DNA of 64,000 bases from an uncultured Saccharofermentans sp. (lineage in GTDB: Bacteria > Bacillota > Clostridia > Saccharofermentanales > Saccharofermentanaceae). The stretch is from the NCBI GenBank assembly GCA_905234715.1, contig CAJOJI010000001.1:8582-72581 (forward strand), read 5' to 3'. The notes under the pieces were generated by a model. The model ran no database searches and was not told where the DNA came from. It was given only the letters and a program-made list of their open reading frames with translations. Every line of letters starts with the position of its first letter. Positions within the stretch are counted from its first letter, which is position 1. Below, piece by piece: positions 4,277 through 20,914 of the stretch. A program made the translations under genes and the position numbers.

Positions 4277-4299
4277 CGTGCTTTTCTCCTGTTTATCTA

Positions 4300-5246: not shown

Positions 5247-5280
5247 AAAAATGCCCGGTGAGTGATTTATCTCCCGGGCG
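5247..5280 (-). terminator. Attenuator terminator upstream of metQ
   Basis: mRNA GCCCGG-GAG...CUC-A-CCGGGC followed by AUUUUU. It lies between the leader stop and the metQ RBS. Confidence 0.8.
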
Positions 5281-5311
5281 CATGGCATATGTTCAAATGC
5301 AATTTACTGCT

Positions 5312-5437
5312 TTAACATCGATCGTTCTCAAGGCGTGAGGAATGTCTTCTTCCGCCCTGGGCCATATAGCGCACCCGGGAGCCGAGCATTCGACAACACA
5401 TCATCATGTTAGCTGTTGTATTAGTTGTTCTATACAT
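5312..5437 (-). CDS. Leader peptide A, 41 aa: MYRTTNTTANMMMCCRMLGSRVRYMAQGGRRHSSRLENDRC
   Basis: AAAGGAGG RBS 8 nt before ATG 5437, an MMMCCRM codon cluster, and a downstream terminator. Too short for the ORF track. Confidence 0.85.
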   Translation of the reverse strand: MYRTTNTTANMMMCCRMLGSRVRYMAQGGRRHSSRLENDRC

Positions 5438-5468
5438 TTCTCACTCCTCCTTTCGTTGTGATGGCGAT

Positions 5469-5503
5469 ACTTTACTACTCATAACCTACCATGTCAATAG
5501 GTT
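5469..5503 (-). promoter_or_regulatory. Sigma-A promoter (TTGACA-17-TAAAGT) with AACCTA-N9-TAGGTT operator
   Basis: -35 at 5492-5497, -10 at 5469-5474, perfect palindrome arms at 5483-5488 and 5498-5503. Confidence 0.75.
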
Positions 5504-5558
5504 TATTGAAATTTTTTTTCGCTTTCTTGAAAATTCCTGTTTTACTTGCTTTCGCGTA

Positions 5559-6122
5559 TTAAGAGATAACTGTCTTCTGCTTATTCTTATTTACTTCACT
5601 ATGCTGTGACAGCTGATACTTATCGAAAAGTTTTACGTACATAAGCGGTACTGCTCCGACGATCGCAGCACTTGCCTGGATACCGTTGGGAATAACCGAA
5701 CCCAATGCCGCTTCAACACCATACATAAACGGCAGTGATTCAAATGCAAAATAACCGGCGATCATGATGAGTTCGGCAATGAAAGATGCTGACAGTTTTC
5801 TTCCGAGGGAAACTTTTCCCTGAGCATTTCTCTTAAGCAGCAAACCTGCAATAAGGCCCATCACACCTTTGATGAGAAATGTAGCAACTGCATACTGCGG
5901 ATAACCGGCAAGAAGGTCTGCAAGTGTCGATCCGATCGCTGCGGGAACGAATGCAAAAGGTCCCATTATGTATGAAGTTACCAGTATCATAAGGTCACCT
6001 AAATTGATGTGTCCGATCGCTGTCGGAATGTGAAGTTCAGTGCCTACAAATATCAAGGCTGCGAGCACACCTGCGTATGCGATCTTCTTTAAATTGTTTC
6101 TGTTCTTGTCTTTACTGCTCAT
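5559..6122 (-). CDS. ECF transporter S component (HmpT/PdxU-like sequence family)
   Basis: About six hydrophobic helices, with AxxxA-type first helix, INLGD, GSTLADLLAGY and TFLIKG motifs. Confidence 0.85.
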   Translation of the reverse strand: MSSKDKNRNNLKKIAYAGVLAALIFVGTELHIPTAIGHINLGDLMILVTSYIMGPFAFVPAAIGSTLADLLAGYPQYAVATFLIKGVMGLIAGLLLKRNAQGKVSLGRKLSASFIAELIMIAGYFAFESLPFMYGVEAALGSVIPNGIQASAAIVGAVPLMYVKLFDKYQLSQHSEVNKNKQKTVIS

Positions 6123-6152
6123 GTTTTAATTCTCCTTTAACAATTATTTTTA

Positions 6153-6191
6153 CAAAAACAAAAACGGGAATTCTTTTTTAAGAACTCCCGT
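6153..6191 (-). terminator. Attenuator terminator upstream of the ECF S-component gene
   Basis: mRNA ACGGGAGUUCUU-AAAA-AAGAAUUCCCGU (12 bp, one G:U) followed by UUUUGUUUUUG. Confidence 0.85.
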
Positions 6192-6232
6192 ACAGTAACC
6201 ATTTTGCTTTGCGATCTTTATGTCATGGGTAA

Positions 6233-6310
6233 TCAGATCACTCCGGTCATATGCGGGAGGGTGACTAAAGCAGGGCACATGCAGATCATAGTGGCCTGAA
6301 TGCTTTTCAT
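6233..6310 (-). CDS. Leader peptide C, 25 aa: MKSIQATMICMCPALVTLPHMTGVI
   Basis: GGAGGAGGT RBS 7 nt before ATG 6310, an MICMC codon cluster, and a downstream terminator. Confidence 0.75.
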   Translation of the reverse strand: MKSIQATMICMCPALVTLPHMTGVI

Positions 6311-6339
6311 TGTCTTACCTCCTCCGATATGATGCGATA

Positions 6340-6374
6340 AAGTTAACATGTATTACCTATCGTGTCAATGGGTT
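6340..6374 (-). promoter_or_regulatory. Sigma-A promoter (TTGACA-17-TAACTT) with AACCCA-N9-TAGGTA operator variant
   Basis: -35 at 6363-6368, -10 at 6340-6345, palindrome variant at 6354-6374 in the same register as the other three sites. Confidence 0.7.
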
Positions 6375-6477
6375 TATTCTCAAGAATTCAAACATCAAGC
6401 ATAATTTAGTATGTCTTCATAAATATTGTTTTTTGCTATAATCTATCTCGATTTCGGGAAAGAAAAGGAATAACCAT

Positions 6478-7164
6478 ATGAAGAGATTAAAGATAGTATC
6501 AGTAATACTTACGGCATCTGTCCTCGCAGGAATCACGTCCTGCTCATCTGAACCTGCCGGAACAACTTCCTCTTCAATGGAACCTACAACTACGGCAGAA
6601 GTTGAAACAGAAGCAACAACGGCCGAACCTGAGATCACGGAAACCACACGCATCGATCCGCAGTCGACCGAACCTTTATGCCATATCTATTTTGAAGAAT
6701 ACGATTCTTTCGAAGTAACATCGACGGATCTTGTTGACGGCGTATGGGCAGACATAACATCCAACACATTCTTAGGCGAGAACCTTTCACCTCAGCTTTC
6801 ATGGGAGCCTGTCGAAGGCGCTGAAGAATACGTCATCTATATGGTCGACAGAAATTCAAACGGTTTTCTTCAGTGGAAATCTGCAGGAATCAAAACGACT
6901 GAACTCCCTCAGGGATGGACATCCAATCTTACCGAATATAACGGACCGCATCTCGGACACGGATATACACACATTTACGATATTTATGTAATAGCTTTAA
7001 GAGCACCGACGACAAGACTTAAAGGTGCATTAAACGCTGCCAATCCGAGACTTGAAGAATTCTTTGAAGAGATCGATACAGACACCGAAGGCAATACGGG
7101 AAACATCATTGCCTACGGAACAATATCCGGCATATTCACAGACGCAAGATACAGAAATATCTGA
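6478..7164 (+). CDS. YbhB/YbcL (PEBP/Raf kinase inhibitor-like) lipoprotein
   Basis: Lipobox ITSC, T/E-rich linker, GENLSPQLSW...YVIYMVD...YNGP..HGYTHIY.IYVIAL. Confidence 0.7.
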   Translation: MKRLKIVSVILTASVLAGITSCSSEPAGTTSSSMEPTTTAEVETEATTAEPEITETTRIDPQSTEPLCHIYFEEYDSFEVTSTDLVDGVWADITSNTFLGENLSPQLSWEPVEGAEEYVIYMVDRNSNGFLQWKSAGIKTTELPQGWTSNLTEYNGPHLGHGYTHIYDIYVIALRAPTTRLKGALNAANPRLEEFFEEIDTDTEGNTGNIIAYGTISGIFTDARYRNI

Positions 7165-7680
7165 TCAGGTTTTATTGTTCTGAATTTTTTTCGACTTGAT
7201 GATGAAGGTAATTACCGTCACCATGAAGAATGCAAAATAGACCATCATCACGGGTGATACAAGAAGACTCGTAACCATCGATAGAATATCGATGTTAAGT
7301 GAAGCATCCCGGCCGAAGATAAGTTTGTCGCCGCCGGCTACATAATAGATAAAACCAACCGAAATAGAAGCAAAGTAGTAAATTATCAGAGCAATTCCCG
7401 CACCTGTTTTGGTCTTCATTTTCTCACTCGATACCACGATTATGGTGGCAATAAGAAGGAGCACCCCAGAAAAAACAGTCGCAAACATATAGACAGGTAC
7501 AATAGTCTTGGGACTATAGCCTGAAGTTATCAGGGATGAATACTGCGGATTTCCCAGAATGAACTTACCGAACTGCCTGATAATTCCCTTCTGGCATAAG
7601 GTGCAGATGACTATTATCAGAAGCGAGACCAGTACAGGTATTGCCATTCCAATGATCTTTTTCTTATATGTCTTATCCAT
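7165..7680 (-). CDS. Hypothetical membrane protein
   Basis: 171-aa ORF with about four hydrophobic segments and an RBS. Confidence 0.6.
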   Translation of the reverse strand: MDKTYKKKIIGMAIPVLVSLLIIVICTLCQKGIIRQFGKFILGNPQYSSLITSGYSPKTIVPVYMFATVFSGVLLLIATIIVVSSEKMKTKTGAGIALIIYYFASISVGFIYYVAGGDKLIFGRDASLNIDILSMVTSLLVSPVMMVYFAFFMVTVITFIIKSKKIQNNKT

Positions 7681-7715
7681 AGCGTGATTCCTCTTAGTTT
7701 TGCTTCGGTACTATA

Positions 7716-8252
7716 TCACTTATTTTCAGCGTCTCTGAAAACCCTTGAACCGGTAGCGCCTCTTTGTCCCTGATACTTACCGTCGTAAGGATTGATAGCG
7801 TGATCATCCATCTCGGCGAAAACGAGCTGGCCTACTCTTCTTCCCGCCTTAAGCTCAATTGCGCATCTATTTGCATTATAAAGTTCAAGCGTGATCTCGC
7901 CCTTGAAGCCCGGATCTACCCATCCGGCATTCTGAATGAAAAGTCCCATTCTTCCGAGTGAGCTTCTTCCTTCAACAAATGCAGTCAGATTATCGGGGAG
8001 CTCGAAATATTCCATCGTGGTTGCGAGGACAAACTGTCCCGGCATTATGAGATATGTATCTGTCGTGATGGTCTTGTACTTGATCTCATTTTCTAATGTG
8101 ATGACGCTTGAAGGCGTATCATCAACAACGCTGAATGTGCGTCCCAAACGGATATCAACACTTGCAGGCTGGATCTGTTCCTTTGTAACAGGATCGATCA
8201 CAAGTGTTTTTTCTTCAAGCATCTTAAGTATTGTTCTGTCAGATAAGATCAT
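7716..8252 (-). CDS. dcd: dCTP deaminase
   Basis: [51 protein letters not shown]. Confidence 0.93.
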
Positions 8253-9061
8253 ATTTCGCCCTCACGATTCTTATTTAAATTACTTGCAGGAGTATAACAT
8301 ATAACGCTGTTCTCACTGCTGTATTTCTTTCCTTCCAAGAGGCTGAAAGCGTGCTGCTTTCCGACGCCTCCAAACCATTCGTACGGTTTATCCTCAGCGG
8401 TCTTGCCTTCGCATATCTCCCGGATTCCGTTGCGCATGCATCTGATAAGAGATATATCATCAAAATCCTGTGCATGACCGTGAAGGATGCGGTCAGCCCT
8501 GTCTTCAAGGAACATTATCCTGTCCAGAGCTTTTACGTATTCAGGCAGCGGCGAGCAGCCGTCAAGCTGCATCCAAAGATGGTGATTTATCGCATCACCC
8601 GTAAAGAGGATCCTGTCTTCTCTCAAAAGCAGTACGATGCTTCCGGGTGTATGTCCGGGCAGCTCGAAAACTTCCAATGTCTTTCCTCCGATATCGATTA
8701 CATCGCCTTCATTTATTGCTTTAAAAGGCGGCATCTTCAGACCGTATTTTTCGGTTTCTGTTATGAATTCAGGAAGCTTTGTGAACGATTCAGCAAGTTC
8801 AAAATCCTTGGGATCGAGATACGCCTCATCAAAATAAAGATTGCCGAAAATGTGATCCGGATGTCCGTGCGTGTTTACGACAACGATAGGCTTGTCAGTA
8901 ACTTTCCTTACTGCTTTTTTAAGGTCGTTTAAACCGTTCATCGTGTCGATGACACAGACCTTTTCTTCGCCTATAACAAAATAACCTGAAGCCATGTGTC
9001 CTTCATCCATCAAATAGATATCGGGTGTTAATTGCTTAACAAACAACTCAAGTTTTTCCAT
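8249..9061 (-). CDS. MBL-fold metallo-hydrolase
   Basis: [16 protein letters not shown] and LFTGD motifs. Confidence 0.88.
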
Positions 9062-9820
9062 TTAACATTCTCCTTTTATCCTCTTTGCGATCTCGATAGC
9101 AATGTCAAATTTATCGAGCGAATGATTAGCCTCATGCAGTCCCTCGGGAGTGTAATCAGGCTGATCGACAACGTCGCCCGCAACCAGGAAATCGTACAGT
9201 TCAAAACCGTGATAATCACACACGGCCTGAACACCAGCAAGCTCCATTTCGACTGCTATGCAGCCTTCGTCCTTACGCTGCTTTACGAGATCTCTGGTTT
9301 CTCTGTAAAGTGCGTCGGTCGTCCAGACTTTTCCTTTGATGAAAGGAAGTCCTTTTTCATCAAATAGGCCTGCAAGGAAATCCGCATTCTTTATGTCGAT
9401 GTAGTCTGCAGGAGGCGCATAATGATAAGACATTCCTTCATCGCGGTAAGCTTGTGTCGGAATGATATATCTGCCGTTGATCTTATCAGGATCCAATGCT
9501 CCGCACGATCCGAACAGAATAAACTTATCCGAGCCTATCTTCCAGTTGGCTTCCATTACATCCGTAGATGCCAGGCAGGATCCTACTTCAGAAAGATAAA
9601 ATCCGAGCTTCATGCCGTCAACATCGATCAAGTGGATCGGCCTTATCAGATTGCATGAACGGAACTCCTCGATCTTTTCGTTGGGATAGGTATTGAGCAC
9701 CGTCTCGAATATCTCACGTGAGAATGTGATAACTGTTGTATCTACTATCTTTTTCTGCTCTCCGAAAAAAGAAGCCGGAGAGATTATCGCTTCACTGTTA
9801 TCAAAAGAATCGGTTATCAT
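9062..9820 (-). CDS. Nucleoside phosphorylase family protein
   Basis: FGSCGAL, RDEGMSYHY, WTTDALYRET and AVEMELAG motifs. Confidence 0.85.
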   Translation of the reverse strand: MITDSFDNSEAIISPASFFGEQKKIVDTTVITFSREIFETVLNTYPNEKIEEFRSCNLIRPIHLIDVDGMKLGFYLSEVGSCLASTDVMEANWKIGSDKFILFGSCGALDPDKINGRYIIPTQAYRDEGMSYHYAPPADYIDIKNADFLAGLFDEKGLPFIKGKVWTTDALYRETRDLVKQRKDEGCIAVEMELAGVQAVCDYHGFELYDFLVAGDVVDQPDYTPEGLHEANHSLDKFDIAIEIAKRIKGEC

Positions 9821-10308
9821 TTTTCTTTCCTCTCATCAGTCACGAAATGCCTTACAGTTTCAGAAGGGCATTTCAGTTCGCTTCTGAAAAACTCAGGGTA
9901 CATGGTTTTCTCTTCTTCAGGAGATACCCACACAAGATGCTCTTTGCATCCGTCTTCGGTAAAGTCGCTTGATACAGGTTCAAAATCTTCAGGAACTTTC
10001 ATATAGAAGAAATACGACACCTCATATATCAGCTTTCCCCTCCTTGAAAGCAAATCACCGTAGAAATAATTCTCGTGAATAAAGCCAAGTCTGTCGACTT
10101 CCATCTTAATTCCTGTCTCTTCGAATACTTCACGGATCACTGCTTCTTCCGCAGTCTCTCCGAAACGGATCCTGCCGCCCACTGAATAAAGATAGTCGAC
10201 ACGGCTGTTGCCGACCATCAGGAACTTCCCGTTTTTCAGAATAATCGCCCCTACCCTGATGTTGATAAAACCATCATCACAGGGGACTGTCATGTCAGTA
10301 TTTTTCAT
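9817..10308 (-). CDS. NUDIX hydrolase
   Basis: Nudix box GGRIRFGETAEEAVIREVFEETG. Confidence 0.9.
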   Translation of the reverse strand: MKNTDMTVPCDDGFINIRVGAIILKNGKFLMVGNSRVDYLYSVGGRIRFGETAEEAVIREVFEETGIKMEVDRLGFIHENYFYGDLLSRRGKLIYEVSYFFYMKVPEDFEPVSSDFTEDGCKEHLVWVSPEEEKTMYPEFFRSELKCPSETVRHFVTDERKEK

Positions 10309-10379
10309 ATTGAATTCCTATATCCTCTCTGAGCATCCTGGCTCAGATAATTAAGGATTATAACATAAGGATCCCGGAA

Positions 10380-11621
10380 TTAAGGTGCCTCAAATCCGGC
10401 AACATCACTTGCGCCTGAAGACACGACTTCATAAGGTATTCCGTTCTCTTTAAGAAGTGCAAGGAAAGCATCTGCTACAGACGTTCCTTCAAATCTCTGC
10501 TGGACTGAAAGAGAAATATTACCGCCTGCCGCACCTAAAAGGACCATAAGGCTGAAAGTGCATGGCGGATGGGTCCAGAATTCCTTCATGTATTCTCCGA
10601 TCGAAGGATACTTCCATTTTCCCGGATAACTTACCAGATAACTTATAAATCCTTCACCGCCGTTGAACATCGCCGTAAAGATATTTTTTCTTTCCTGCAA
10701 AGATGGTGTCGATGACATTATTCCTTTAACAACTGATGCATTTACTGCAAGTCCTGATGCTACCTGCTCTTCCCTGCTCTGAACGAATGTCTTGCCGCGG
10801 TAAACCGTGCCCTGCATTTCAAGAGGCATCGACTTTACTACAGGAGAATAATCGAAAACCGACATGCCGAGACAGTTATGGTTTGTAGCTTCAGCACCGA
10901 CCATGGGACGCGCATTGATGACATATGCGCTGACGATAGGCTTGGTCCTTTCAGGATATAAAGAATCGATTGTTTTACCCATCAGGAGTTCGACCATCGT
11001 GCCCGGAGTCGAATCGTTTTCGCGCACAAATTTCACGAAGGCATCTTCAGGGATTATTATGTCCCAGATCAGAGGTGATGACTTAGTAAGTCCGCCGTCA
11101 GTCTCCAATGTAAAAGCAGGAGAATATGCCGCATCAGGAGCAGGCACTTCTTCCATCGTGTCCTGCGGATCTGCCATCTCGGCAGCGATATCTGAAGATT
11201 CAAGTTCAGGTATTTCATCTATTCCGTAAAACATCCTGCAGTAGTTATAAAGGATCACCGCAAGCACTCTGTACATTCCGGTGCCGTCCGTAATGCCATG
11301 GAAGAAATCCAGATAAATGAAGTCTTCTTTATATGACACAGACCAGACGTGAAAATTGGTTTCTTCAGAATTCAGGATTACACGAGAATCACCTTCACGT
11401 ACCACTATCGGAAGATCGTTATCCGCATATTCATAGGAGTCGCCTGTGCATACGAGGCGCCCCATGAAATAAGGGAATCTTGAAGATGCAAAAGATACAG
11501 CAGAGAACAACACAACAGGATCGACATTATCTTTAAGTCTGACCTTGAACCTGACCGTGTAATCAACACCTGCGCCGATCGCACCGTAAACATGCATTGT
11601 ATCTCCGGTAGTGATCTTCAT
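10380..11621 (-). CDS. CoA-dependent acyltransferase / condensation-like protein
   Basis: FFHGITDGTG matches the HxxxDG motif; VINARP and SYPG segments; 413 aa. Confidence 0.55.
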   Translation of the reverse strand: MKITTGDTMHVYGAIGAGVDYTVRFKVRLKDNVDPVVLFSAVSFASSRFPYFMGRLVCTGDSYEYADNDLPIVVREGDSRVILNSEETNFHVWSVSYKEDFIYLDFFHGITDGTGMYRVLAVILYNYCRMFYGIDEIPELESSDIAAEMADPQDTMEEVPAPDAAYSPAFTLETDGGLTKSSPLIWDIIIPEDAFVKFVRENDSTPGTMVELLMGKTIDSLYPERTKPIVSAYVINARPMVGAEATNHNCLGMSVFDYSPVVKSMPLEMQGTVYRGKTFVQSREEQVASGLAVNASVVKGIMSSTPSLQERKNIFTAMFNGGEGFISYLVSYPGKWKYPSIGEYMKEFWTHPPCTFSLMVLLGAAGGNISLSVQQRFEGTSVADAFLALLKENGIPYEVVSSGASDVAGFEAP

Positions 11622-11673
11622 GCCGTGTTCACCTCGTTTGAAGAATTGCTGTTCTTATTATACTAAACGCTGT

Positions 11674-12489
11674 TTATGCTTTTGTGGCAGAGATGATGAA
11701 ATGAGGGCTGATGCCCATCATGGATTCTTCGTGTTCCGTGGTCCTTATTATCTTTAAAAGTCTCTCGCGCTTATCGTCATCTTTCCACTTCTCAGCAATA
11801 TCGGGAGTGATCCATGAACAGCCTTCGACAGCAGCACTCTCTGTTACCTTAAAACCTGCTTCGCTGATCTCATCTCTTAATCCGTCGATGGTGTGGAAAT
11901 ATGCATTTGAGATAAAGTAAGGATATTCCTTAGGTCTTATGTGTTCACCTGTTTCCATCTCGCGCATTATCATGTCCATATAAATGTCATCGCTGATGAA
12001 TTCGTTGGCAGTTCCGTAAACAGTCAGAGCCCATGTTGCCGAACTGAATTTTGATATTCCGGCAGCGATCAGAATGCCGTTATCCTTAAGCACACGGTAC
12101 GCCTCCGAAAGAACAGTCAGTCTGTCTTCCTTACTCATCAGATGATAAAGAGGTCCCATGAGAAGCACCATGTCTGCACTGTTGTCAGGCTTGTCAATTT
12201 TACGTGCGTCTCCTACTTCAGCTTCATACGGAACCGTCATGTGTTCTTTTGCATAATCGACAGCCGTGGGAGCAAGCTCGATAAGTGTTACTTCATGTCC
12301 CATGGAAGCAAGCCATTCGGCATACTTTCCGATGCCTCCGCCGATATCGTAGATCTTCATCTTGCCGTTAAGATATCTGCTGATAATTTCTTTGCTTCTC
12401 CAGAACTCAACAACACCGAGGCCTCTTTCAAGACGTCCTATCTCAGCGCCGTTGTTATAAAATTCATATACTTCATCTATTCTTTCCAT
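11674..12489 (-). CDS. Class I SAM-dependent methyltransferase
   Basis: IYDIGGGIG, GDAR, DMVLLMGPLYHL. Confidence 0.88.
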   Translation of the reverse strand: MERIDEVYEFYNNGAEIGRLERGLGVVEFWRSKEIISRYLNGKMKIYDIGGGIGKYAEWLASMGHEVTLIELAPTAVDYAKEHMTVPYEAEVGDARKIDKPDNSADMVLLMGPLYHLMSKEDRLTVLSEAYRVLKDNGILIAAGISKFSSATWALTVYGTANEFISDDIYMDMIMREMETGEHIRPKEYPYFISNAYFHTIDGLRDEISEAGFKVTESAAVEGCSWITPDIAEKWKDDDKRERLLKIIRTTEHEESMMGISPHFIISATKA

Positions 12490-12503
12490 ATTCTTTTACT
12501 CCG

Positions 12504-13016
12504 TTAATCATTCAAGACCGAATCTATGGCCTGTTCGTAATCATCTTCTATCAATGTGACTGCCTGACCGAACCGCTGTCGGAATGTTTGATTGTCAGCT
12601 TTAATGCTTTCCATTGTGCAGTCATCATAAAGTCTCTTCTCGACAACAGACTCTTTATCCTTTATGTCGTCGAAATGCTTTTCGATGTAATCATCTGAAA
12701 ATGCGAGACAGATAAACCTTATAGATGATTGATATTGATCGTCAAAATCCTGCTGCCAGTTGTGCGGAACATAGCATCCTTCAATGATCATGTCCTGGCC
12801 ATTCTCGATCGCGGTCTTGATCATCTCTCTTACGACGGGCCAGAGGTAATCTGTAAGCTTGTCATCATCCATGGGAGTAAGATCAGTCATGCCGCTTCTT
12901 ATGAGGCCCATCTTCAGGTGGTCTATGGACATGCAGGGATAGTTATATTTCCCGATCAGCTTCTTAGCGAGAAATGTCTTTCCTGTATGTGTTGCACCTG
13001 TAATCAGTATGATCAT
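12504..13016 (-). CDS. P-loop kinase-like / AAA family protein
   Basis: Walker A GATHTGKT and IIEG motif. Confidence 0.7.
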   Translation of the reverse strand: MIILITGATHTGKTFLAKKLIGKYNYPCMSIDHLKMGLIRSGMTDLTPMDDDKLTDYLWPVVREMIKTAIENGQDMIIEGCYVPHNWQQDFDDQYQSSIRFICLAFSDDYIEKHFDDIKDKESVVEKRLYDDCTMESIKADNQTFRQRFGQAVTLIEDDYEQAIDSVLND

Positions 13017-13047
13017 TTATTATCTCCATATGTCTTTAGCGAAAAGT

Positions 13048-13947
13048 TTACCCCCAAGATTCGATCGCTTCAACAGAGAGATCCACAAGATGTTCGCCTT
13101 CCACTCCGTCCATTGTATGTGTAGCTCCTTCGATAACGAAAAACTGCACATTCGGGAACGCAGCTAATGCAGGCTTGAAGAAATCGGGATCTTCTCCGAA
13201 GCTTCCCTCAGTTCCCGTGAATATGATCACAGGTATCTTGCATGTCTCAAGGATCGGATAGAGGTCTCTGTCTATCAGGACTTCATCTTCGAACCACATG
13301 ATTTCGGGAGCATAAAAACTCGGATCGACAAGTATAAGTCCTTTGATCTCATCCTGCCTGTAGGTTCCCGCGTAGCATACAACGATGCCGCCCATACTGT
13401 GTCCGTACAGATAGATATTCGAAGTATCAACTTCAGGAAGATATTCACATGAATCAATAACGGCGTACAGGTCTTTTATCTGGTCCACAACAAAGTTGCC
13501 CAGAAACGCCGGATCCTCACCTGACTCAGGACGCGTGCCATTCTGACAGAGAAATTCGATTACCGCAAAACCGTGCTCGCTGTAATGCTCGGCTTTATCC
13601 GAATATCTTCCGAGAGGCGCATATAATCCGCTGGTAATTATGATCGTCTTAAAAGGCCCCTGACCCTGGGGAACTGTAAGCCTGGCGTAGATCTCGCCTC
13701 CGTCGCGGTAGAAGATTACTTCCTTCGTTCTGCCTTCACTCTTTGAAACCGCAGGCATTAATATCGAATACTCGATGGGCGGGAATTCTTCCACCTTGAC
13801 CAGTCTTGTCTTGATTGGCTGTCTATCGGCATTTTCATTCATCACTTTACCGGGCTTTACAGGCTGCGGTTTTGAACACGAAGCCAGAAGGCAGGCGGTA
13901 ACTACTATCAATATCAGACACTTTATTCTTGATGATCTTTTTCTCAT
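13048..13947 (-). CDS. Alpha/beta hydrolase lipoprotein
   Basis: Lipobox LASC, nucleophile elbow GHSMGG, C-terminal GATH. Confidence 0.8.
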   Translation of the reverse strand: MRKRSSRIKCLILIVVTACLLASCSKPQPVKPGKVMNENADRQPIKTRLVKVEEFPPIEYSILMPAVSKSEGRTKEVIFYRDGGEIYARLTVPQGQGPFKTIIITSGLYAPLGRYSDKAEHYSEHGFAVIEFLCQNGTRPESGEDPAFLGNFVVDQIKDLYAVIDSCEYLPEVDTSNIYLYGHSMGGIVVCYAGTYRQDEIKGLILVDPSFYAPEIMWFEDEVLIDRDLYPILETCKIPVIIFTGTEGSFGEDPDFFKPALAAFPNVQFFVIEGATHTMDGVEGEHLVDLSVEAIESWG

Positions 13948-15071
13948 TACTTCATGATAACAAGCTCGTAATCACGTGTTCCGATTCCGATCTTCTCTCC
14001 GTGTTCAAGTGTTTCTTCCCACGAAACATTCGGATTGCTGTTGTGCCAGACATCACCGTGATCGTGGAAATGATCACTGTTCATATTATCACCTAACTGG
14101 CTGTTTCTGACAGGCTCGGCCTTCTGGCAGAGATCAACGCACGCCTGGTCCAGAGCAACCGGATCAAATGAAGCGAGCATTCCGATATCAGGAAGGATGG
14201 GCGCATCGTTCTCACCGTGGCAGTCGCAGTTCGGCGAAACATCCGTGATAAGACTTATGTGGAAGTTCGGTCTGCCGCTGATGACAGCTGCCGTATACTC
14301 GGCCATCTTTCTTCCAAGCATCGATGCTGCATCCCAGTTATCGTTTTCGATGGCATCGAATGCGCATGCTCCGATGCAGCGGCCGCATCCCTTACACTTA
14401 TCGGGATCGATCCTCGCTTTGCCGTTCTCGTAGATAAATGCGTCTGAACCGCATTCCTTAGAGCATCTTCTGCACCCTTTGCAGCGTTCGGTGATAACAT
14501 GGGGATGGCCGCTCTGATGTTGCTGCATCTTACCCGCACGGGAACCGCAACCCATGCCGATGTTCTTTATACAGCCGCCGAAGCCGGCCTGCTCATGTCC
14601 TTTGAAATGCGTAAGGGAGATAAAGATATCGGCATCCATTACGGCACGGCCGATGTAAGCTTCCTTGCAGTACTCACCATTGGGAACAGGAACGATTATG
14701 TCGTCAGTTCCTCTAAGTCCGTCAGCGATGATTATCTGGCATCCGGTAGTTATCGTGTTAAAACCGTTGATATTAGCGCAGTCCAGGTGTTCGAGCGCAT
14801 GCTTACGGCTTCCGGGATAAAGCGTATTGCAGTCGGTTAAAAAAGGCATTCCGCCGAGTTCTTTAACAACGTCAGCTACAGCCTTCGCATAATTGGGTCT
14901 TAAATATGCGAGATTTCCAAGTTCGCCGAAATGCATCTTGATCGCAACAAACTTGTTGTCCATATCGATAGACTGGATTCCCGCAAGCCTTATGAGCTTT
15001 TGAAGCTTGGCAGTAAGAGGCGTACCAAGACCCGTACGAAAATCAGTAAAATACACTTTTGATTTATCCAT
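13947..15071 (-). CDS. DUF362 domain protein with two 4Fe-4S ferredoxin motifs
   Basis: VAIKMHFGE, HFKGHE, KNIGMG, and two CxxCxxCxxxC motifs. Confidence 0.85.
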   Translation of the reverse strand: MDKSKVYFTDFRTGLGTPLTAKLQKLIRLAGIQSIDMDNKFVAIKMHFGELGNLAYLRPNYAKAVADVVKELGGMPFLTDCNTLYPGSRKHALEHLDCANINGFNTITTGCQIIIADGLRGTDDIIVPVPNGEYCKEAYIGRAVMDADIFISLTHFKGHEQAGFGGCIKNIGMGCGSRAGKMQQHQSGHPHVITERCKGCRRCSKECGSDAFIYENGKARIDPDKCKGCGRCIGACAFDAIENDNWDAASMLGRKMAEYTAAVISGRPNFHISLITDVSPNCDCHGENDAPILPDIGMLASFDPVALDQACVDLCQKAEPVRNSQLGDNMNSDHFHDHGDVWHNSNPNVSWEETLEHGEKIGIGTRDYELVIMK

Positions 15072-15176
15072 TTAGCACCTCCCGGCAATAATCAGACTAT
15101 CGTTCAGATAGAAAAATTATAGCATTTTGGAGGTGCAAAAATGAATTATATTACGGTCTTATCTGTTCAGTTCCTT

Positions 15177-15830
15177 TTATGTCTTTCTGTGCTTCTTGGA
15201 CATCCAAATACCGATTTCCTGAATGAGCATTACCATGATTATCAGTAATGCAACCGTGGTAAAGAGAACATCTTTCTGGTAGCTGTAATAGCCGTACTGC
15301 AGTGCAATTGCACCGAGTCCGCCACCTCCGATGACGCCTGCCATTGCAGAGTAACCGAGTACGGTTGCAACGTTGATGGCGCCGCCCTGAAGAAGTGAAG
15401 GTGTTGCTTCAGGAATGATGAAATGAAGTATCGTATAAAGAGGTGATGCACCCATTGATGTGGCGGCTTCAATAATTCCCGGCTGTACTTCATTAAGCGA
15501 TGATTCGACCATTCGCGCAACGATCGGGATAGCGCCTATCGTGAGAGGTACGATTGCAGCCGTGGTACCGATGGACTGGCCTACGATAAATCTCGTAAAC
15601 GGGATGAGGAGCACGAGGAGGATCAGGAACGGCAATGACCGAGTGATGTTTACGATGGCTCCGATAATGAAGTTGACGGGCCTGTTCTCGAGCAGACGTC
15701 CTTTTGATGTCGCATAGAGCAGGACGCCCAAAGGCATTCCGACCGCATATGAAAAAAGCGAAGCGAAGAATGTCATTACAAACGTCTCCCAGACACCTGT
15801 TATTATTGCTTCTCTGATGTAATCACTCAT
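15177..15830 (-). CDS. metI: Methionine ABC transporter permease MetI
   Basis: VNITRSLPFLILLV, ARMVESSL, YSAMAGVIGGGGLG. Confidence 0.93.
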   Translation of the reverse strand: MSDYIREAIITGVWETFVMTFFASLFSYAVGMPLGVLLYATSKGRLLENRPVNFIIGAIVNITRSLPFLILLVLLIPFTRFIVGQSIGTTAAIVPLTIGAIPIVARMVESSLNEVQPGIIEAATSMGASPLYTILHFIIPEATPSLLQGGAINVATVLGYSAMAGVIGGGGLGAIALQYGYYSYQKDVLFTTVALLIIMVMLIQEIGIWMSKKHRKT

Positions 15831-16830
15831 ATCTGTTTACCTCCGACACCGACAGGCCGCCCTTTCTGAAAAAGTCGATGACAGTCTTACGGTCCTTTTC
15901 AGATTCAGGCAGTTCGATGATCATCTGACCGTAACCGATGCCGCCGACGCTTCTCGTGTTCGCACTCAGGATGTTTACCTTAAGGCCTGTCTCCTCAACG
16001 AGATTTGCAATGAACGGCACGTTCGACTGTGTGCCGTCGAAAACGATTCTTACAAGCTGTCCGTTCTCATCAGAAGGATCGAAAGGATTGCTCGGGAATA
16101 CGAGTTTTTTCGCTGCTTTCGACCGGGGATTTGAAAAGACTTCCTTAACATCGCCTATCTCTGCAAGAGTACCGTCATCTATAATGGCAACACGGTCGCA
16201 GATCTTTTCCACAACACTCATCTCGTGCGTAATTATGACGATCGTCAGTTTTCTTTCTTCGTTGATCTTCTTCAAAAGATCCAGTATCTCGCCCGTTATC
16301 TTCGGATCAAGAGCGCTCGTTGCCTCATCGCACAAAAGCACTTTCGGATCTACTGCAAGCGCTCTTGCTATGGCAACTCTCTGCTTCTGACCGCCCGAAA
16401 GACGTGCGGGATATTCATTTGCCTTCTCAAGAAGACCAACGATCTCAAGCATCTGTTTTGCCTTTTCGCGTCTGATATTGCGCGGTGTTCCGATGATCTT
16501 CAAAGACTGCTCAACGTTCTGGATAACAGTGCGCTGGTTGATAAGATTGAAGCCCTGGAAGATCATGGAGATCGAATGTCTTACTTCTCGAAGTTCTTTG
16601 GGCTTAAGTGCAGCAAGATCATCTCCGTAGAAATTAACCGTACCCGAGCTGACTTCCTCAAGTCTGTTCAGCGTTCGTACAAGTGTTGATTTGCCTGCAC
16701 CGCTCATGCCGATTATGCCGAATATCTCACCTTCATTTATGGTAAGACTTACATCCTTGAGCGCAGTGAATTCCTTGCCGTCGTTCTTATAAGTCTTGTA
16801 TACGTTTTTTAATTCATATACGTTTTCCAT
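15823..16830 (-). CDS. metN: Methionine ABC transporter ATP-binding protein MetN
   Basis: GMSGAGKST, LSGGQKQRV, LCDEATSALDP, C-terminal NIL domain. Confidence 0.93.
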   Translation of the reverse strand: MENVYELKNVYKTYKNDGKEFTALKDVSLTINEGEIFGIIGMSGAGKSTLVRTLNRLEEVSSGTVNFYGDDLAALKPKELREVRHSISMIFQGFNLINQRTVIQNVEQSLKIIGTPRNIRREKAKQMLEIVGLLEKANEYPARLSGGQKQRVAIARALAVDPKVLLCDEATSALDPKITGEILDLLKKINEERKLTIVIITHEMSVVEKICDRVAIIDDGTLAEIGDVKEVFSNPRSKAAKKLVFPSNPFDPSDENGQLVRIVFDGTQSNVPFIANLVEETGLKVNILSANTRSVGGIGYGQMIIELPESEKDRKTVIDFFRKGGLSVSEVNRYE

Positions 16831-17745
16831 TTAATCGAATAATCCTTTGCTTAAATATCTGTCTCCTCTGTCAGGGAAAACAGTTACTATGTTTCCTTCA
16901 TCAATTTCTTCCGCAAGCTTAAGTGCTGCCGCAAGTGCCGCACCTGATGAAGAACCGGCAAGAATGCCTTCGTGCTTTGCGAGTTCTCTTGAAGCATTGA
17001 ATGCTTCATCGTCATTGATCTTTATGACCTTATCAACAAGCGTGATATCCATCGTATCTGCTATAAAGTCGTTGCCGATACCTTCGATGTTGTAATCGAA
17101 ATGTTCTCCTCCGCCGATCGTTGAACCGTAAGGATCTGCAAGAACTCCGACGATATCCGGGTTTTGCTCCTTGAGATACTTAACGACTCCGGAGAATGTT
17201 CCGCCGCTTCCTGCGCCTGCTACAAAGTAATTGATATTACCGTCAAGCTGTGAATAGATTTCAGGTCCTGTTGTCTCATAGTGAGCAAGAGGGTTAGCGG
17301 GATTTCTGAACTGTCTTAATGAAACAGAACCTGGAATGGTCTTAAGTATTTCTTCGGCTTTCTGCTCTGCTCCGAGCATTCCGCCTTCTCTTGATGTGTG
17401 AACGATTTCGGCACCCAATGCCTTCATGACTTTCTGCTTCTCGACTGAGAACTTTTCAGGCACCGTGAATATTACTCTGTATCCCTGGTTAAGCGCTGCA
17501 ACTGCGATTCCGATACCGGTATTGCCCGCTGTGGCATCAACGATCGTTCCGCCTTCTTTAAGTATTCCTCTCTTTCTTGCGTCATCGATCATGTAAACGC
17601 CTACACGGTCTTTTACGCTTCCTGCGGGGTTCATAAGTTCAAGTTTTGCATAGATATTTACTCCGGGCTTAATGCCCATATGGGAGATCTTAAGGATCGG
17701 AGTATTACCGATCATCTGTCTTACATTTTCATATACGTTATTCAT
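16831..17745 (-). CDS. mccA: PLP-dependent cysteine synthase family, MccA-like (O-acetylserine-dependent cystathionine beta-synthase)
   Basis: NPAGSVKDR, TAGNTGIG, FSVEKQ and GAGSGGTF; adjacent to an mccB-like gene. Confidence 0.75.
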   Translation of the reverse strand: MNNVYENVRQMIGNTPILKISHMGIKPGVNIYAKLELMNPAGSVKDRVGVYMIDDARKRGILKEGGTIVDATAGNTGIGIAVAALNQGYRVIFTVPEKFSVEKQKVMKALGAEIVHTSREGGMLGAEQKAEEILKTIPGSVSLRQFRNPANPLAHYETTGPEIYSQLDGNINYFVAGAGSGGTFSGVVKYLKEQNPDIVGVLADPYGSTIGGGEHFDYNIEGIGNDFIADTMDITLVDKVIKINDDEAFNASRELAKHEGILAGSSSGAALAAALKLAEEIDEGNIVTVFPDRGDRYLSKGLFD

Positions 17746-17755
17746 TTCATTTACC

Positions 17756-18910
17756 TCACGCCTTAACGGAATTCTCGATTGCCTGCTTCAGATCTGCGAT
17801 CAGATCATCAACATCTTCAATGCCTACTGAAAGTCTGATGAGTTCATCAACGATTCCTACTTCTTTTCTGATGTCAGCAGGGATTGCTGCATGTGTCATC
17901 GTTGCAGGATGGCATACGAGTGATTCAACGCCGCCCAAACTTTCTGCAAGAGTAATGAGCTGAAGCTTCTCGAAAAACAACTTGTAATCGTACTTGTCGT
18001 TAAGAACAAATGAGATCATTGCGCCGGCACCGTCAGCCTGCTTTTTCTGGATCTCATAACCCGGATCAGTCTTAAGACCGGGATAGTAAACCTTGCTTAC
18101 ATAACCGCTGTCCACGAGCCACTCAGCAACCTTCTGCGCATTCGCAACATGTCTGTCCATACGGACACCTAAAGTCTTGATACCTCTTATGATGAGGAAG
18201 CTGTCCCAGGGTGCAAGCACTCCGCCGATTGCATTCTGCAGATAGTAAAGTCTGTCCGCAAGCTGCTTGTCGTTTACTACCACGAAGCCTGAAATCGTAT
18301 CAGAGTGACCGCCGAGATATTTTGTTCCGCTGTGGATTACGATGTCTGCACCGAGCGTCAAAGGTCTCTGAAGATAAGGTGTAAGGAATGTGTTGTCTAC
18401 GATAACGAGCTTGTCGTGCTTCTTGCCGATCTTGGATACCGCTTCGATATCAGTGATCGTGAGAAGCGGGTTTGCAGGTGTCTCGATATAGATTGCTTTT
18501 ACATCATCGTCGATCGCATTTTCGACAGCTTCAAGATCGGATGTATCAACGATCTTGTATGTGATATTGAAGTTCTTGAAAACGTTGTCGAGGATACGGA
18601 ACGTACCACCGTAAATGTTATCCGAAACGATGAGCTTATCGCCTGATTTAAAGAGCGAGAGAACCGTGTTGATGGCAGCAAGTCCTGATGCGAATGCAAG
18701 ACCGTACTGTCCTTCTTCGAGATCTGCAATGAGCTTCTCGAGTGCTGCTCTGGTGGGGTTGCCAGTTCTCGAATATTCCCAACCTCTGTTTTTGCCTAGA
18801 CCGTCCTGCTTATATGTAGATGTCTGGTATACGGGAATGTTTACCGCACCTGTTGTCTCGTCTCCGTCAATACCGCCGTGTATAAGTAAAGAATTTCTTT
18901 TGTAACTCAT
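17756..18910 (-). CDS. mccB: Cystathionine gamma-lyase, MccB-like (Cys/Met metabolism PLP family)
   Basis: PVYQTSTY, EYSRTGNPTR, HSGTKYLGGHSD, LAESLGGVESL. Confidence 0.75.
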   Translation of the reverse strand: MSYKRNSLLIHGGIDGDETTGAVNIPVYQTSTYKQDGLGKNRGWEYSRTGNPTRAALEKLIADLEEGQYGLAFASGLAAINTVLSLFKSGDKLIVSDNIYGGTFRILDNVFKNFNITYKIVDTSDLEAVENAIDDDVKAIYIETPANPLLTITDIEAVSKIGKKHDKLVIVDNTFLTPYLQRPLTLGADIVIHSGTKYLGGHSDTISGFVVVNDKQLADRLYYLQNAIGGVLAPWDSFLIIRGIKTLGVRMDRHVANAQKVAEWLVDSGYVSKVYYPGLKTDPGYEIQKKQADGAGAMISFVLNDKYDYKLFFEKLQLITLAESLGGVESLVCHPATMTHAAIPADIRKEVGIVDELIRLSVGIEDVDDLIADLKQAIENSVKA

Positions 18911-18936
18911 TTTATTTTCCTTCTTTCGTAATTTGC

Positions 18937-18972
18937 AAAAATTAAGCCCGGGATGAGCGATCTTCCCGGGCT
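18937..18972 (-). terminator. Attenuator terminator upstream of mccB
   Basis: mRNA AGCCCGGGA-(10-nt loop)-UCCCGGGCU followed by UAAUUUUU. Confidence 0.85.
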
Positions 18973-18999
18973 GTTGGTGGTTGATGTTTTATATTGAAG

Positions 19000-19098
19000 T
19001 CAACATCGCACATCGTCAAGGCGCATGTTCATGCAGTCAAACGCCAAGGCCGATTCAGCCCCTGGAATATGCATTCGACAACACATGATCATTAACAT
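19000..19098 (-). CDS. Leader peptide B, 32 aa: MLMIMCCRMHIPGAESALAFDCMNMRLDDVRC
   Basis: GGAGG RBS 8 nt before ATG 19098. Shares MxMCCRM and RLxxxRC-stop with leader A. Confidence 0.87.
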   Translation of the reverse strand: MLMIMCCRMHIPGAESALAFDCMNMRLDDVRC

Positions 19099-19138
19099 TT
19101 CGTTCGCCTCCGTTTTTGGTTTTCTATGGCATGCACAC

Positions 19139-19172
19139 ATTATGCCACATAAACCTACCTTGTCAATAGGTT
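19139..19172 (-). promoter_or_regulatory. Sigma-A promoter (TTGACA-16-TGnCATAAT) with AACCTA-N9-TAGGTT operator
   Basis: -35 at 19161-19166, -10 at 19139-19144, perfect palindrome at 19152-19172, immediately after the iscU stop. Confidence 0.75.
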
Positions 19173-19179
19173 ATTCAGA

Positions 19180-19560
19180 TTATTTTTCTTCCTGCCTGGA
19201 TTCATAGTCCTTGAGAGCAGCTTCAATTGCTTCCTGTGCAAGGACTGAACAGTGCATCTTATAGTCAGGCAGACCGTCCAAAGCTTCTGCAACTGCTTTG
19301 TTTGTAAGCTGTCTTGCTTCCTCAACGGGCTTGCCCTTGATGAGTTCAGTTGCCATTGAGCTTGATGCAATTGCGCTTCCGCATCCGAATGTCTCGAACT
19401 TAACATCCTTTACGATGTCATCTTCGATCTTGAGATACATCTTCATGATGTCTCCGCACTTAGCGTTACCTACTGTGCCTACACCGTTTGCGTCTTCAAG
19501 AACGCCTACGTTTCTCGGATTTCTGAAATGATCCATTACTTTCTCACTATATAAAGCCAT
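19180..19560 (-). CDS. iscU: Fe-S cluster scaffold IscU/NifU
   Basis: YSEKVMDHFRNPRNVG, CGD, FGCGSAIAS, KMHCS. Confidence 0.95.
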   Translation of the reverse strand: MALYSEKVMDHFRNPRNVGVLEDANGVGTVGNAKCGDIMKMYLKIEDDIVKDVKFETFGCGSAIASSSMATELIKGKPVEEARQLTNKAVAEALDGLPDYKMHCSVLAQEAIEAALKDYESRQEEK

Positions 19561-20790: not shown

Positions 20791-20825
20791 ATCATAATTC
20801 GTTTAACCCACCAAGTCAATAGGTT
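20791..20825 (-). promoter_or_regulatory. iscS promoter (TTGACT-17-TATGAT) with AACCTA-N9-TGGGTT operator variant
   Basis: -35 at 20814-20819, -10 at 20791-20796, palindrome at 20805-20825. Confidence 0.75.
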
Positions 20826-20845: not shown

Positions 20846-20894
20846 TTGACAAGCTAATTCAGATTAGCTATAATCTGGCTAATTTGGATTAGCC
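20846..20894 (+). promoter_or_regulatory. Consensus sigma-A promoter with two GCTAAT-N4-ATTAGC TetR-type operators
   Basis: TTGACA 20846-20851, 17-bp spacer, TATAAT 20869-20874; palindromes at 20853-20868 and 20877-20894. Confidence 0.8.
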
Positions 20895-20914
20895 AACATT
20901 TTCGAGAGGTCAAT

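Follow-up and report, generated by a model that had tools for sequence, protein, structure and literature searches.

A stretch of 64,000 nucleotides (nt) from an uncultured Saccharofermentans sp., hereafter the window, carries three short open reading frames (ORFs) rich in Cys and Met codons, each of which precedes an intrinsic terminator and genes of sulfur amino acid transport or metabolism. From sequence comparison and folding models, we consider it probable that these leaders are functional Cys-responsive attenuators of transcription, operated by the translating ribosome. The evidence for this reading, drawn from sequence, comparison or computation, consists of the anatomy of the leaders, their conservation among relatives, the complementarity of an upstream arm to the terminator and the position dependence observed in equilibrium folding. 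Leader-peptide attenuation is the textbook mechanism of enteric amino-acid operons (trp, his, leu, thr, pheA, ilv) and is considered rare in Firmicutes, in which T-boxes and riboswitches do this job.

Three Leaders with a Common Architecture

The three leaders are L1, ahead of the metQ gene, L2, ahead of a gene for an ECF-type S component, and L3, ahead of the mccB-mccA-metN-metI operon. They share one layout, which consists of a promoter, a Shine-Dalgarno sequence (SD), a short ORF, a GC-rich arm and a terminator (Table 1). All have a TTGACA box at -35, an SD of the GGAGG type located 6-8 nt before the ATG and an ORF of 25-41 codons which contains a Met/Cys cluster and begins 25-34 nt from the predicted transcription start site. 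The arm starts 11 nt (L1), 15 nt (L2) and 10 nt (L3) past the last clustered Cys codon and is in each case complementary to the 5' half of the terminator. These spacings had been given, together with the claim of one architecture at three sulfur loci, in a preliminary description of this DNA, and all the elements were found in their places on the minus strand. At all three loci the leader ORF is separated from the first structural gene by the terminator, whose stem (-15 to -19 kcal/mol) is followed by a T-run; the SDs of the downstream genes take no part in the pairing of the arm. A block of 16 nt (ATGTGTTGTCGAATGC) is identical in L1, L3 and several relatives, and the ORFs of L1 and L3 extend 56-60 nt beyond the arm.

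The whole window was scanned on both strands for an SD and an ATG followed by an ORF of 8-60 codons with a Cys/Met cluster and a downstream terminator. The scan returned exactly three sites, namely L1, L2 and L3; 60 dinucleotide-preserving shuffles of the window gave a mean of 0.07 sites, with a maximum of 1. As for transcripts, rumen metatranscriptome runs cover the region only through short Logan contigs of low depth, which are too fragmented to yield usable 3' ends and one of which crosses the L3 terminator.

Table 1. Features of the leaders, their promoters and the genes around them (positions in the window), with leader peptides of relatives; (stop) marks a stop codon.
Feature	Position	Strand	Sequence	Remarks
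L1 operator palindrome	5484..5501	-	CCTATTGACATGGTAGGT	overlaps -35
L1 promoter	5497-5492 (-35); 5474-5469 (-10)	-	TTGACA; TAAAGT	
L1 SD	5450-5444	-	GGAGGAG	
L1 leader ORF	5437..5312	-	MYRTTNTTANMMMCCRMLGSRVRYMAQGGRRHSSRLENDRC(stop)	41 aa; begins MYRTTNTTANMMMCCRM, ends RC(stop); orthologs L007, L128, L129, L091
L1 regulatory codons	5387..5407	-	ATG ATG ATG TGT TGT CGA ATG	MMMCCRM
L1 antiterminator arm	5381-5369	-	CTCCCGGGTGCGC	partner GCGCCCGGGAG; pairing -18.9 kcal/mol, terminator -15.3
L1 intrinsic terminator	5281-5247	-	GCGCCCGGGAG ... CTCACCGGGC A TTTTT	
L2 operator palindrome	6355..6372	-	CCCATTGACACGATAGGT	overlaps -35
L2 SD	6324-6317	-	GGAGGAGG	
L2 leader ORF	6310..6233	-	MKSIQATMICMCPALVTLPHMTGVI(stop)	25 aa; ..TMICMC..; 13 distinct orthologs
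L2 cluster	6289-6275	-	ATG ATC TGC ATG TGC	
L2 antiterminator arm	6245..6260	-	CCTCCCGCATATGACC	CTCCCG at 6259-6254; pairs with GGTTACTGTACGGGAG, 5' side of terminator
L2 intrinsic terminator	6154..6191	-	12-bp stem, then TTTTGTTTTT	stem 6191-6164
L3 operator palindrome	19153..19170	-	CCTATTGACAAGGTAGGT	overlaps -35
L3 promoter	19166-19139	-	TTGACA-16-(TG)CATAAT	
L3 SD	19111-19107	-	GGAGG	
L3 leader ORF	19098..19000	-	MLMIMCCRMHIPGAESALAFDCMNMRLDDVRC(stop)	32 aa; MLMIMCCRM...; orthologs L001, L008, others
L3 first cluster	19098-19072	-		
L3 second cluster	19035-19024	-		C22 M23 N24 M25
L3 region 1	19079-19071	-	GUCGAAUGC	Cys-Arg-Met codons; pairs with GCGUUUGAC at 19044-19036
L3 antiterminator arm	19067-19056	-	TTCCAGGGGCTG	partner CAGCCCGGGAAG
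L3 intrinsic terminator	18973-18936	-	CAGCCCGGGAAG ... CATCCCGGGCTT AATTTTT	
Fourth palindrome	20806..20823	-	CCTATTGACTTGGTGGGT	over -35 of nifS-nifU promoter; no leader ORF there
mccB leader, L001			MIRIMCCRMHYTRAES..RC(stop)	
mccB leader, L003			MKCMCCCMLYTRAMDGCCLNMIRCR(stop)	
mccB leader, Lachnospiraceae			MKGSVQTFRRNCCCCCE(stop)	
mccB leader, L015			MFNQSMSNRICCCCCCRD...	
mccB leaders, Fibrobacter			MTQNLMNICCCCWGRCRTGD(stop); MNFLFNSFNSVCCC(stop)	
Fe-dependent alcohol dehydrogenase	4276..3116	-		after metQ; L1 downstream span 3116..5181
metQ-family lipoprotein gene	5181..4300	-		first gene after L1
ECF-type S component (PF07155)	5559..6122	-		first gene after L2
metN and metI	16830..15177	-		L3 operon; whole operon 15177..18910
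mccA/cysK-like pyridoxal phosphate enzyme	17745..16831	-		L3 operon
mccB-like cystathionine gamma-lyase	18910..17756	-		first gene after L3
nifU	19560..19180	-		ahead of mccB operon
nifS	20763..19573	-		ahead of mccB operon
TetR-family gene	20915-21532	+		divergent from nifS

Conservation of the Leaders in Clostridia and Fibrobacter

The MccB-like protein was searched against 185,579 species genomes, and 80 loci were retrieved. Its best match comes from a metagenome-assembled genome (MAG) named 'Oscillospiraceae bacterium' (97% identity), followed by MAGs resembling Saccharofermentans and Mageeibacillus; the window belongs to a rumen lineage of Clostridia. In about 30 of the 80 loci, mccB is preceded by a short SD-led ORF that contains a Cys run, and nearly all of these ORFs are followed by an intrinsic terminator. 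When all 80 loci were scanned on both strands, 44 leaders were obtained, some of them upstream of metQ, metY-like, ECF-S and ubiG-like methyltransferase genes; one of them lies upstream of a distant metQ, and the L1 ortholog in L007 (MYRTINTTVSMMCCRMLGSRVREMAQGVRSHSSRLENDRC) also precedes metQ. A large group of leaders from Ruminococcus and Oscillospiraceae (MKTMCCMMCC..., MRTMYMMCCCMC...) is found before the ubiG-like methyltransferase gene that heads the mccB operon. The scan of relatives proposed in the preliminary description has in total yielded about 55 leaders, distributed among Saccharofermentans-like, Oscillospiraceae/Ruminococcus and Lachnospiraceae genomes as well as Fibrobacter; the leader of L074 belongs to Herbinix hemicellulosilytica T3/55T.

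L2 has 13 distinct orthologs, which were collected by a metagenome scan with the S-component protein and have peptides of the types MK..ATMICMC(C)T..LPHMTGVI(C)(stop), M..TTTTMHH(K/M)CCFEVTLPRMTGIC(stop) and MKTATLQ.KHYMCCLKDALPRMYGSC(stop). For L1, a protein search gave two further orthologs; the only difference in cluster length within the L1 set is a single Met codon (MMMCC versus MMCC). Throughout the ortholog sets of L1, L2 and L3 the start codon, the reading frame and the SD are kept, Cys codons alternate between TGT and TGC, and insertions and deletions comprise whole codons. The preliminary description had named a lack of conserved frame or Cys codons as an outcome that would speak against its proposal; the frame, the SD, the Cys codons and the complementarity of the arm are conserved for all three leaders. 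Between clades the leaders have no common sequence or fold outside the Cys/Met cluster, and all that they share is this cluster and the spacing that separates it from the arm.

These patterns bear on two other ways of reading the ORFs. According to the first, the leaders would be an undescribed riboswitch or a protein-binding RNA, in which the ORF is untranslated and the UGU, UGC and AUG repeats form an RNA motif. The identity of the 16-nt block goes beyond what conservation of a peptide needs, and several helices are conserved, including a hairpin at the stop codon with covarying stems; however, nearly every leader has an ATG and, 6-8 nt from it, a strong SD, synonymous Cys codons are exchanged, length changes by whole codons, clades resemble each other only in the cluster and its spacing, and Rfam gives no match, which makes this explanation very improbable. 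According to the second, the Cys-rich peptides would themselves be functional products, such as precursors of RiPPs (peptides made by the ribosome and modified after translation) or metal- or redox-binding peptides, and not sensors. Their Cys content and the C-terminal ...RC(stop) and LP(H/R)MTG motifs kept within clades would suit such a role, but genes for a maturase or for export are not found next to them, the motifs kept in the peptides fall on segments of RNA pairing, and the ORFs occur without exception in 5' leaders that have a terminator and precede sulfur-amino-acid genes. Moreover, nothing but the Cys/Met cluster relates the peptides of one clade to those of another, 7 of the peptides have no family match in Pfam and NCBIfam, and the L1 peptide finds only 2 unnamed matches among 5.8 billion proteins. 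We rejected this role, mainly for the missing maturase genes and the unrelated peptides, and regard it as having hardly any chance of being right. Leader peptides of this kind are almost never annotated as genes.

The hairpin at the stop codon is a small structure whose loop encloses the stop codon and the sense codon just before it, which is often Cys; it is seen at 19000-19024 and 6233-6250 of the window and in L083, L092 and L094. Its stems co-vary between subfamilies (GTGATC/GATCAC, GGCAT/ATGCC, ACGG/CCGT), and it could be a polymerase pause or a ribosome-release element. Another observation concerns the metagenome contig L091, in which a leader of the L1 type (L091:~75-270; MTGTTNMTCCRMFNSRVRNLAQ..GRC(stop)), normally located before metQ, is followed by a gene orthologous to that of the S component (84% identity). 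In this respect the leaders seem to be exchangeable modules.

Complementarity between Arm and Terminator

The terminator was located in 29 leaders, for which we then sought the best upstream complement of the terminator 5' arm. This complement begins 4-19 nt, and typically 10-13 nt, past the last clustered Cys codon in 26 of the 29. The sequences themselves differ by clade: GCCCGGG; GCTTGTTTCG with CGAAGCAAG; GCATTCTTCGC with GCGAGGAATG; CGGACGGGC with TCCCGCTCGG; and CTCCCG with CGGGAG, to which the clade-specific arms AACGAAGCAAG and ACGGGAG are added. Such co-variation at the level of the architecture, with arm and terminator sequences that are unrelated from one clade to the next, is the strongest argument that the predicted pairing is functional.

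In the L2 family the antiterminator is extended, with CUCCCGC..AUGACC pairing with GGUUA..CGGGAG. In L094 and L098 it is altered on both sides with the pairing preserved (CUCCCGCGAAU with AUUCGCG-A-GGGAG), and a bulge shifts the register. Because the extended pairing constrains the RNA, the segment LP(H/R)MTG is conserved in the peptides of this family. RNAalifold recovered the terminator and the stop-codon hairpin of the L2 family; two-sided covariation was scant among these closely related sequences.

Folding as a Function of Ribosome Position

For these calculations, the part of the RNA present just before the emergence of the terminator 3' arm was folded, with a footprint of 27 nt masked for each codon placed in the A site. 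A crude measure, counting any upstream pairing of the terminator 5' arm, gave mixed results, and a measure specific to the arm was used instead. In L3 without a ribosome, the arm is locked by pairing of region 1 (GUCGAAUGC) with GCGUUUGAC, and the probability (P) that it pairs with the terminator 5' arm is 0.00. P reaches 0.7-1.0 (0.98 for Cys) when the A site holds one of codons 2-8, which include Cys6 and Cys7; from codon 10 onward and at the stop codon it is 0, apart from codons 21-26. These six codons (D C M N M R) constitute a second permissive window, with P of 0.8-1.0, and correspond to the second Cys/Met cluster. In the leaders of the L002 type (L002-L007), in which the second cluster reads DCCC or DGCC, the model gives 0 at this position, and the role of the second cluster may differ between clades. 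For L2, P is 0.85 without a ribosome, 0.99 at Cys and 0.11 at the stop codon. L1 is antiterminated by default and is off only with the A site on codons 18-26, which fits a pure occlusion model. Occlusion of the arm by a ribosome translating past the cluster was what the preliminary description had proposed for all three leaders; it stands for L1 and is incomplete for L3, where a hairpin lock between region 1 and the arm and a second Cys/Met stall window have to be added.

Extended to the 29 leaders, the calculation found 25 that are permissive while the A site holds a clustered Cys; of these 25, 17 are also off at the stop codon. In 19 of the 29 the switch from permissive to non-permissive occurs +1 to +4 codons past the last clustered Cys, so that in these leaders a stall at the Cys cluster permits the antiterminator and a ribosome placed 1-4 codons further abolishes it; folding with and without a ribosome footprint had been proposed in the preliminary description. 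The Fibrobacter leaders have their stop codon on the arm; in the clade of the window the ORF runs 36-60 nt beyond it.

Several folding results weigh against attenuation by a Cys-stalled ribosome. When L2 and L3 are folded at full length, the terminator is favored at equilibrium for every ribosome position, and full-length L1 favors the antiterminator always, unless the ribosome is on the arm (A-site codons 18-26). In addition, a ribosome at the stop codon of L1 or L3 does not itself cover the arm, given the length of these ORFs. It follows from the equilibrium results that the outcome depends on co-transcriptional kinetics and on the spacing between ribosome and polymerase. The same scans, in which any stall within the first codons is permissive and not just one at Cys or Met, would also be compatible with general sensors of translation stress or of Rho polarity, devoid of amino-acid specificity. 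Against such sensors speak the strong enrichment of Cys and Met codons, their placement at the permissive window's 3' edge and the fact that all the regulated genes belong to Cys/Met transport or metabolism; we consider a general sensor to be very unlikely.

Cysteine and Methionine as Proposed Signals

Sensing of Cys is the robust part of the proposal and is well supported, the Cys runs being the sole feature common to all clades and lying at that same 3' edge. That the leaders sense both Cys and Met seems to us somewhat better founded than its contrary. In the 55 leaders, Cys represents 16.8% of the residues and non-initiator Met 10.6%, a Met enrichment which is somewhat inflated since the leader search scored Met as well as Cys. 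Two other points speak against a signal from Met. The Met codon after Cys-Cys-Arg falls within a conserved helix (UCGAAUG) with a downstream partner and is perhaps structural; and it is not obviously logical that a pathway from Met to Cys, that of mccB and mccA, should be induced by Met starvation, which would be sensible only if the operon holds a Met transporter, as in L3.

These points would suit attenuators that sense Cys-tRNA only and whose Met codons reflect RNA structure, extra AUGs or drift, as would the pure poly-Cys leaders of Lachnospiraceae and several Fibrobacter (NCCCCCE, RICCCCCCR, SVCCCC). However, leaders of Ruminococcus and Oscillospiraceae with 4-5 Cys, which could pass the filter without any Met, still interleave 3-4 Met (MKTMCCMMCC, MRTMYMMCCCMC), and metQ is preceded by the leader richest in Met. 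The run of Met codons (MMM or MM) before the Cys codons lies outside any predicted helix, a stall there is permissive in the scans, and metNI and metQ operons gain from induction by Met starvation. Sensing of Cys alone is, for these reasons, a rather doubtful alternative to dual sensing.

Predicted Leader Peptides in the Place of T-Boxes and S-Boxes

In C. acetobutylicum, C. perfringens and relatives, the ubiG-mccB-mccA operon is controlled by a Cys T-box and by an antisense RNA under an S-box. The preliminary description had suggested that leader peptides replace such elements here, and had named a T-box or S-adenosylmethionine (SAM) riboswitch match on the leaders as an observation that would contradict it. 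At the gathering threshold Rfam gave no T-box (RF00230) and no SAM riboswitch in the whole window, and the leaders scanned at E <= 10 returned noise only, without a T-box or SAM aptamer. This negative result on the leaders is meaningful because the same library finds T-boxes at the orthologous loci of Clostridium; it also recovered a SAM riboswitch in L021. The only Rfam match in the window is an azaaromatic (yjdF) riboswitch aptamer (RF01764, 54225-54349, minus strand, 73 bits), unrelated to the leaders.

In C. ljungdahlii, C. tetanomorphum, C. rectalis and one Clostridium MAG, the T-boxes were detected upstream of mccB at a distance of 0.8-1 kb, where they precede the ubiG-like gene, which is the exact position of the Met/Cys leader in Ruminococcus and Oscillospiraceae. 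C. ljungdahlii has an additional antisense SAM riboswitch at its ubiG-mccBA locus, an arrangement reportedly known from the ubiG operon of C. acetobutylicum. Since the T-box of Clostridium occupies the position taken elsewhere by a Met/Cys leader, the replacement is supported at an orthologous operon: the putative leader-peptide attenuator stands where other clostridia have a T-box or S-box. The operon and the position of the cis-element are the same in both cases; in those clostridia a riboswitch senses uncharged tRNA or SAM directly, whereas the predicted sensor here is the translating ribosome.

A Promoter Palindrome and a Putative Rrf2-Type Repressor

A palindrome of the form CCTATTGACAnnnTAGGT (CCTATTGACAnnnTAGG) is present in 4 copies in the window, for 0.12 expected, namely at the three leader promoters and at the promoter of nifS-nifU. 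In relatives the same palindrome lies at or just downstream of most leader promoters, and Fibrobacter has a related one (CCTAC-N7-ATAGG). In L002-L007 a gene for a 131-aa protein of the Rrf2 family, with three C-terminal Cys, is divergent from nifS or from a leader promoter; the intergenic region has two palindromes, one over the -10 of the Rrf2 gene and one over the neighboring -35. The matches of this protein to CymR (94 bits) and to IscR (89 bits) fall under the equivalog cut-offs, and no Rrf2 gene was found within the window. The palindrome is probably the operator of an autoregulated CymR/IscR-like repressor, common to the genes for Fe-S assembly and for Cys and Met. As in the CymR and IscR regulons of Firmicutes, a palindrome, here a putative operator, is shared by Cys/Met and Fe-S assembly promoters, and in relatives an Rrf2 gene with a putative autoregulatory site stands beside nifS; unlike theirs, the candidate regulator falls below both cut-offs and is not encoded in the window.

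One could imagine that control is exerted wholly by this Rrf2-type repressor and that the short ORFs and hairpins are incidental or insulate the upstream operon. The operator is indeed common to the three promoters and to nifS-nifU, which has no leader, and the L3 terminator could also end the upstream nifS-nifU transcript. However, the terminators lie downstream and not upstream of the new promoters, and the ORF, its cluster and the complementarity of arm and terminator are kept across phyla, including at promoters without a palindrome (L009, L011, L014). Control by the repressor alone is accordingly very hard to credit beside attenuation acting under it. Both this probable additional control layer, the putative Rrf2-type operator, and the spread of the system beyond this genome to Fibrobacter are absent from the preliminary description.

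The TetR-family gene beside nifS was also envisaged as the source of the regulator of this palindrome and was discarded, its intergenic region carrying different palindromes (GCTAAT...ATTAGC). These are TTGGCTAATCCAAATTAGCCA (20896-20876) and TAGCTAATCTGAATTAGCT (20870-20852), both in the nifS-TetR intergenic region (20852-20896), and are probably the TetR regulator's own operators.

Genomic Surroundings

All the genes between 3.1 and 20.8 kb of the window are on the minus strand. The protein encoded at 5559-6122 matches TIGR04002 weakly. In the metagenome contigs L082, L089 and L101, the S-component gene comes directly after metI and has no leader of its own; its position next to metI in relatives points to a methionine-related substrate for this uncharacterized transporter component. 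On one metagenome contig (L128:1-1152), an integrase gene (rve) of the insertion-sequence type and a helix-turn-helix gene are located just upstream of the promoter of the metQ leader. Beyond the TetR-family gene of the window comes a gene resembling flavin mononucleotide reductase (21533-22252).

Relation to Known Attenuators

The predicted attenuators display every defining feature of leader-peptide attenuators of the trp, his and leu type that can be tested in silico. They share with the enteric systems an SD-led short ORF, clustered codons for the amino acids of the pathway and antiterminator and terminator hairpins that exclude each other; the 1:2 / 2:3 / 3:4 logic is complete in L3, and the stop codon placed on the arm in Fibrobacter recalls trp. 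They differ from them by the mixture of Cys and Met codons, by their hosts, which are Clostridia (Firmicutes) and Fibrobacter, by the extension of the L1 and L3 ORFs beyond the arm, with a Cys codon at the end and one more Cys/Met stall window, by the lack of a strong 1:2 lock in L1, and by their combination with the operator of a promoter repressor.

Three other groups of leaders have to be compared. Mycobacteria have leaderless polycysteine upstream ORFs (uORFs) that act at the translational level, the Cys tract pairing with the downstream SD without an intrinsic terminator (Canestrari et al., bioRxiv 10.1101/834739); its authors knew of no uORF-mediated attenuation for cysteine. Cys leaders were also predicted in Actinobacteria (Seliverstov et al. 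2005, PMC1262725). In both, as is proposed here, consecutive Cys codons before genes of cysteine metabolism serve as a sensor of Cys-tRNA; in contrast to the mycobacterial uORFs, L1-L3 have an SD, would act on an intrinsic terminator and combine Cys codons with Met codons, and they are not members of that class. The uORFC-8-2 motif, which precedes cysS in Rhodobacterales (Brewer et al. 2021, PMC8632094), likewise has tandem Cys codons and a terminator and is predicted to attenuate transcription by way of the ribosome, but it belongs to Alphaproteobacteria, concerns the single gene cysS, has two Cys codons in the first stem and no Met, and shows no sequence relationship to the leaders described here. 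Finally, His leader peptides precede the hisS/hisZ paralogs of the B. cereus group (Naville & Gautheret 2010, PMC2965389) and are, like ours, 'regular' leader peptides used by Firmicutes in place of a T-box, whereas they respond to histidine, have a narrow distribution and serve a single function.

In the full-text literature, to which our search was directed and which excludes subscription-only articles, we found no Cys or Met leader peptides in Clostridia or Fibrobacter and no mixed Met/Cys leaders, Cys leaders being found only in Actinobacteria and Rhodobacterales. As far as found, the literature on cysteine transcription attenuators amounts to the one predicted cysS motif of Rhodobacterales, and no such attenuator was found for methionine. 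The mechanism is familiar; what is new is the specificity for Cys (and probably Met), the hosts, the spread over several operons and phyla, the second stall window and the stacking with a probable Rrf2 operator.

Proposed Mechanism and Significance

We infer a mechanism in two layers, which includes translation of the leader ORF, stalling, a response in vivo, the sensing of Met and the identity and ligand of the repressor. In the first layer, an Rrf2-family repressor bound to the palindrome around the -35 would control initiation by sigma-A polymerase, in common with nifS-nifU. The attenuators would constitute the second layer, dependent on tRNA charging and subordinate to the repressor. The leader ORF would be translated from its strong SD and, under a shortage of Cys-tRNA (and probably of Met-tRNA), the first ribosome would stall with a clustered Cys or Met codon in its A site. 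Its front edge would then be a few nt short of the arm, which could pair with the emerging 5' half of the terminator, and RNA polymerase would read through into metQ, the ECF S-component gene or mccB-mccA-metNI. With plentiful charged tRNA, the ribosome would move on by 1-4 codons and cover the arm, the terminator would form and transcription would stop; in L3, the Cys-Arg-Met codons thus freed would re-pair with the downstream segment and lock the arm.

On a broader scale, these leaders could represent a widespread and undescribed class of mixed Met and Cys attenuators that, in several clostridial orders, displaced the Cys T-box and the S-box at ubiG/mccBA, metNIQ, metY and ECF-S genes and that arose or spread independently in Fibrobacter, with two amino-acid signals per ORF, sometimes two stall windows, and an Rrf2 repressor above them. 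We regard this general statement, taken as a whole, as having an even chance of being correct.

The finding offers a natural case of sensor replacement, from T-box to leader peptide, at an orthologous operon, and a test bed for attenuation in organisms where the coupling of transcription and translation may be loose. It also provides annotation rules for hundreds of unannotated small ORFs and compact Cys/Met-responsive parts for the engineering of anaerobes. Finally, the presence of these leaders in dominant fiber degraders of the rumen suggests that the control of sulfur amino acids in these bacteria runs through the ribosome.

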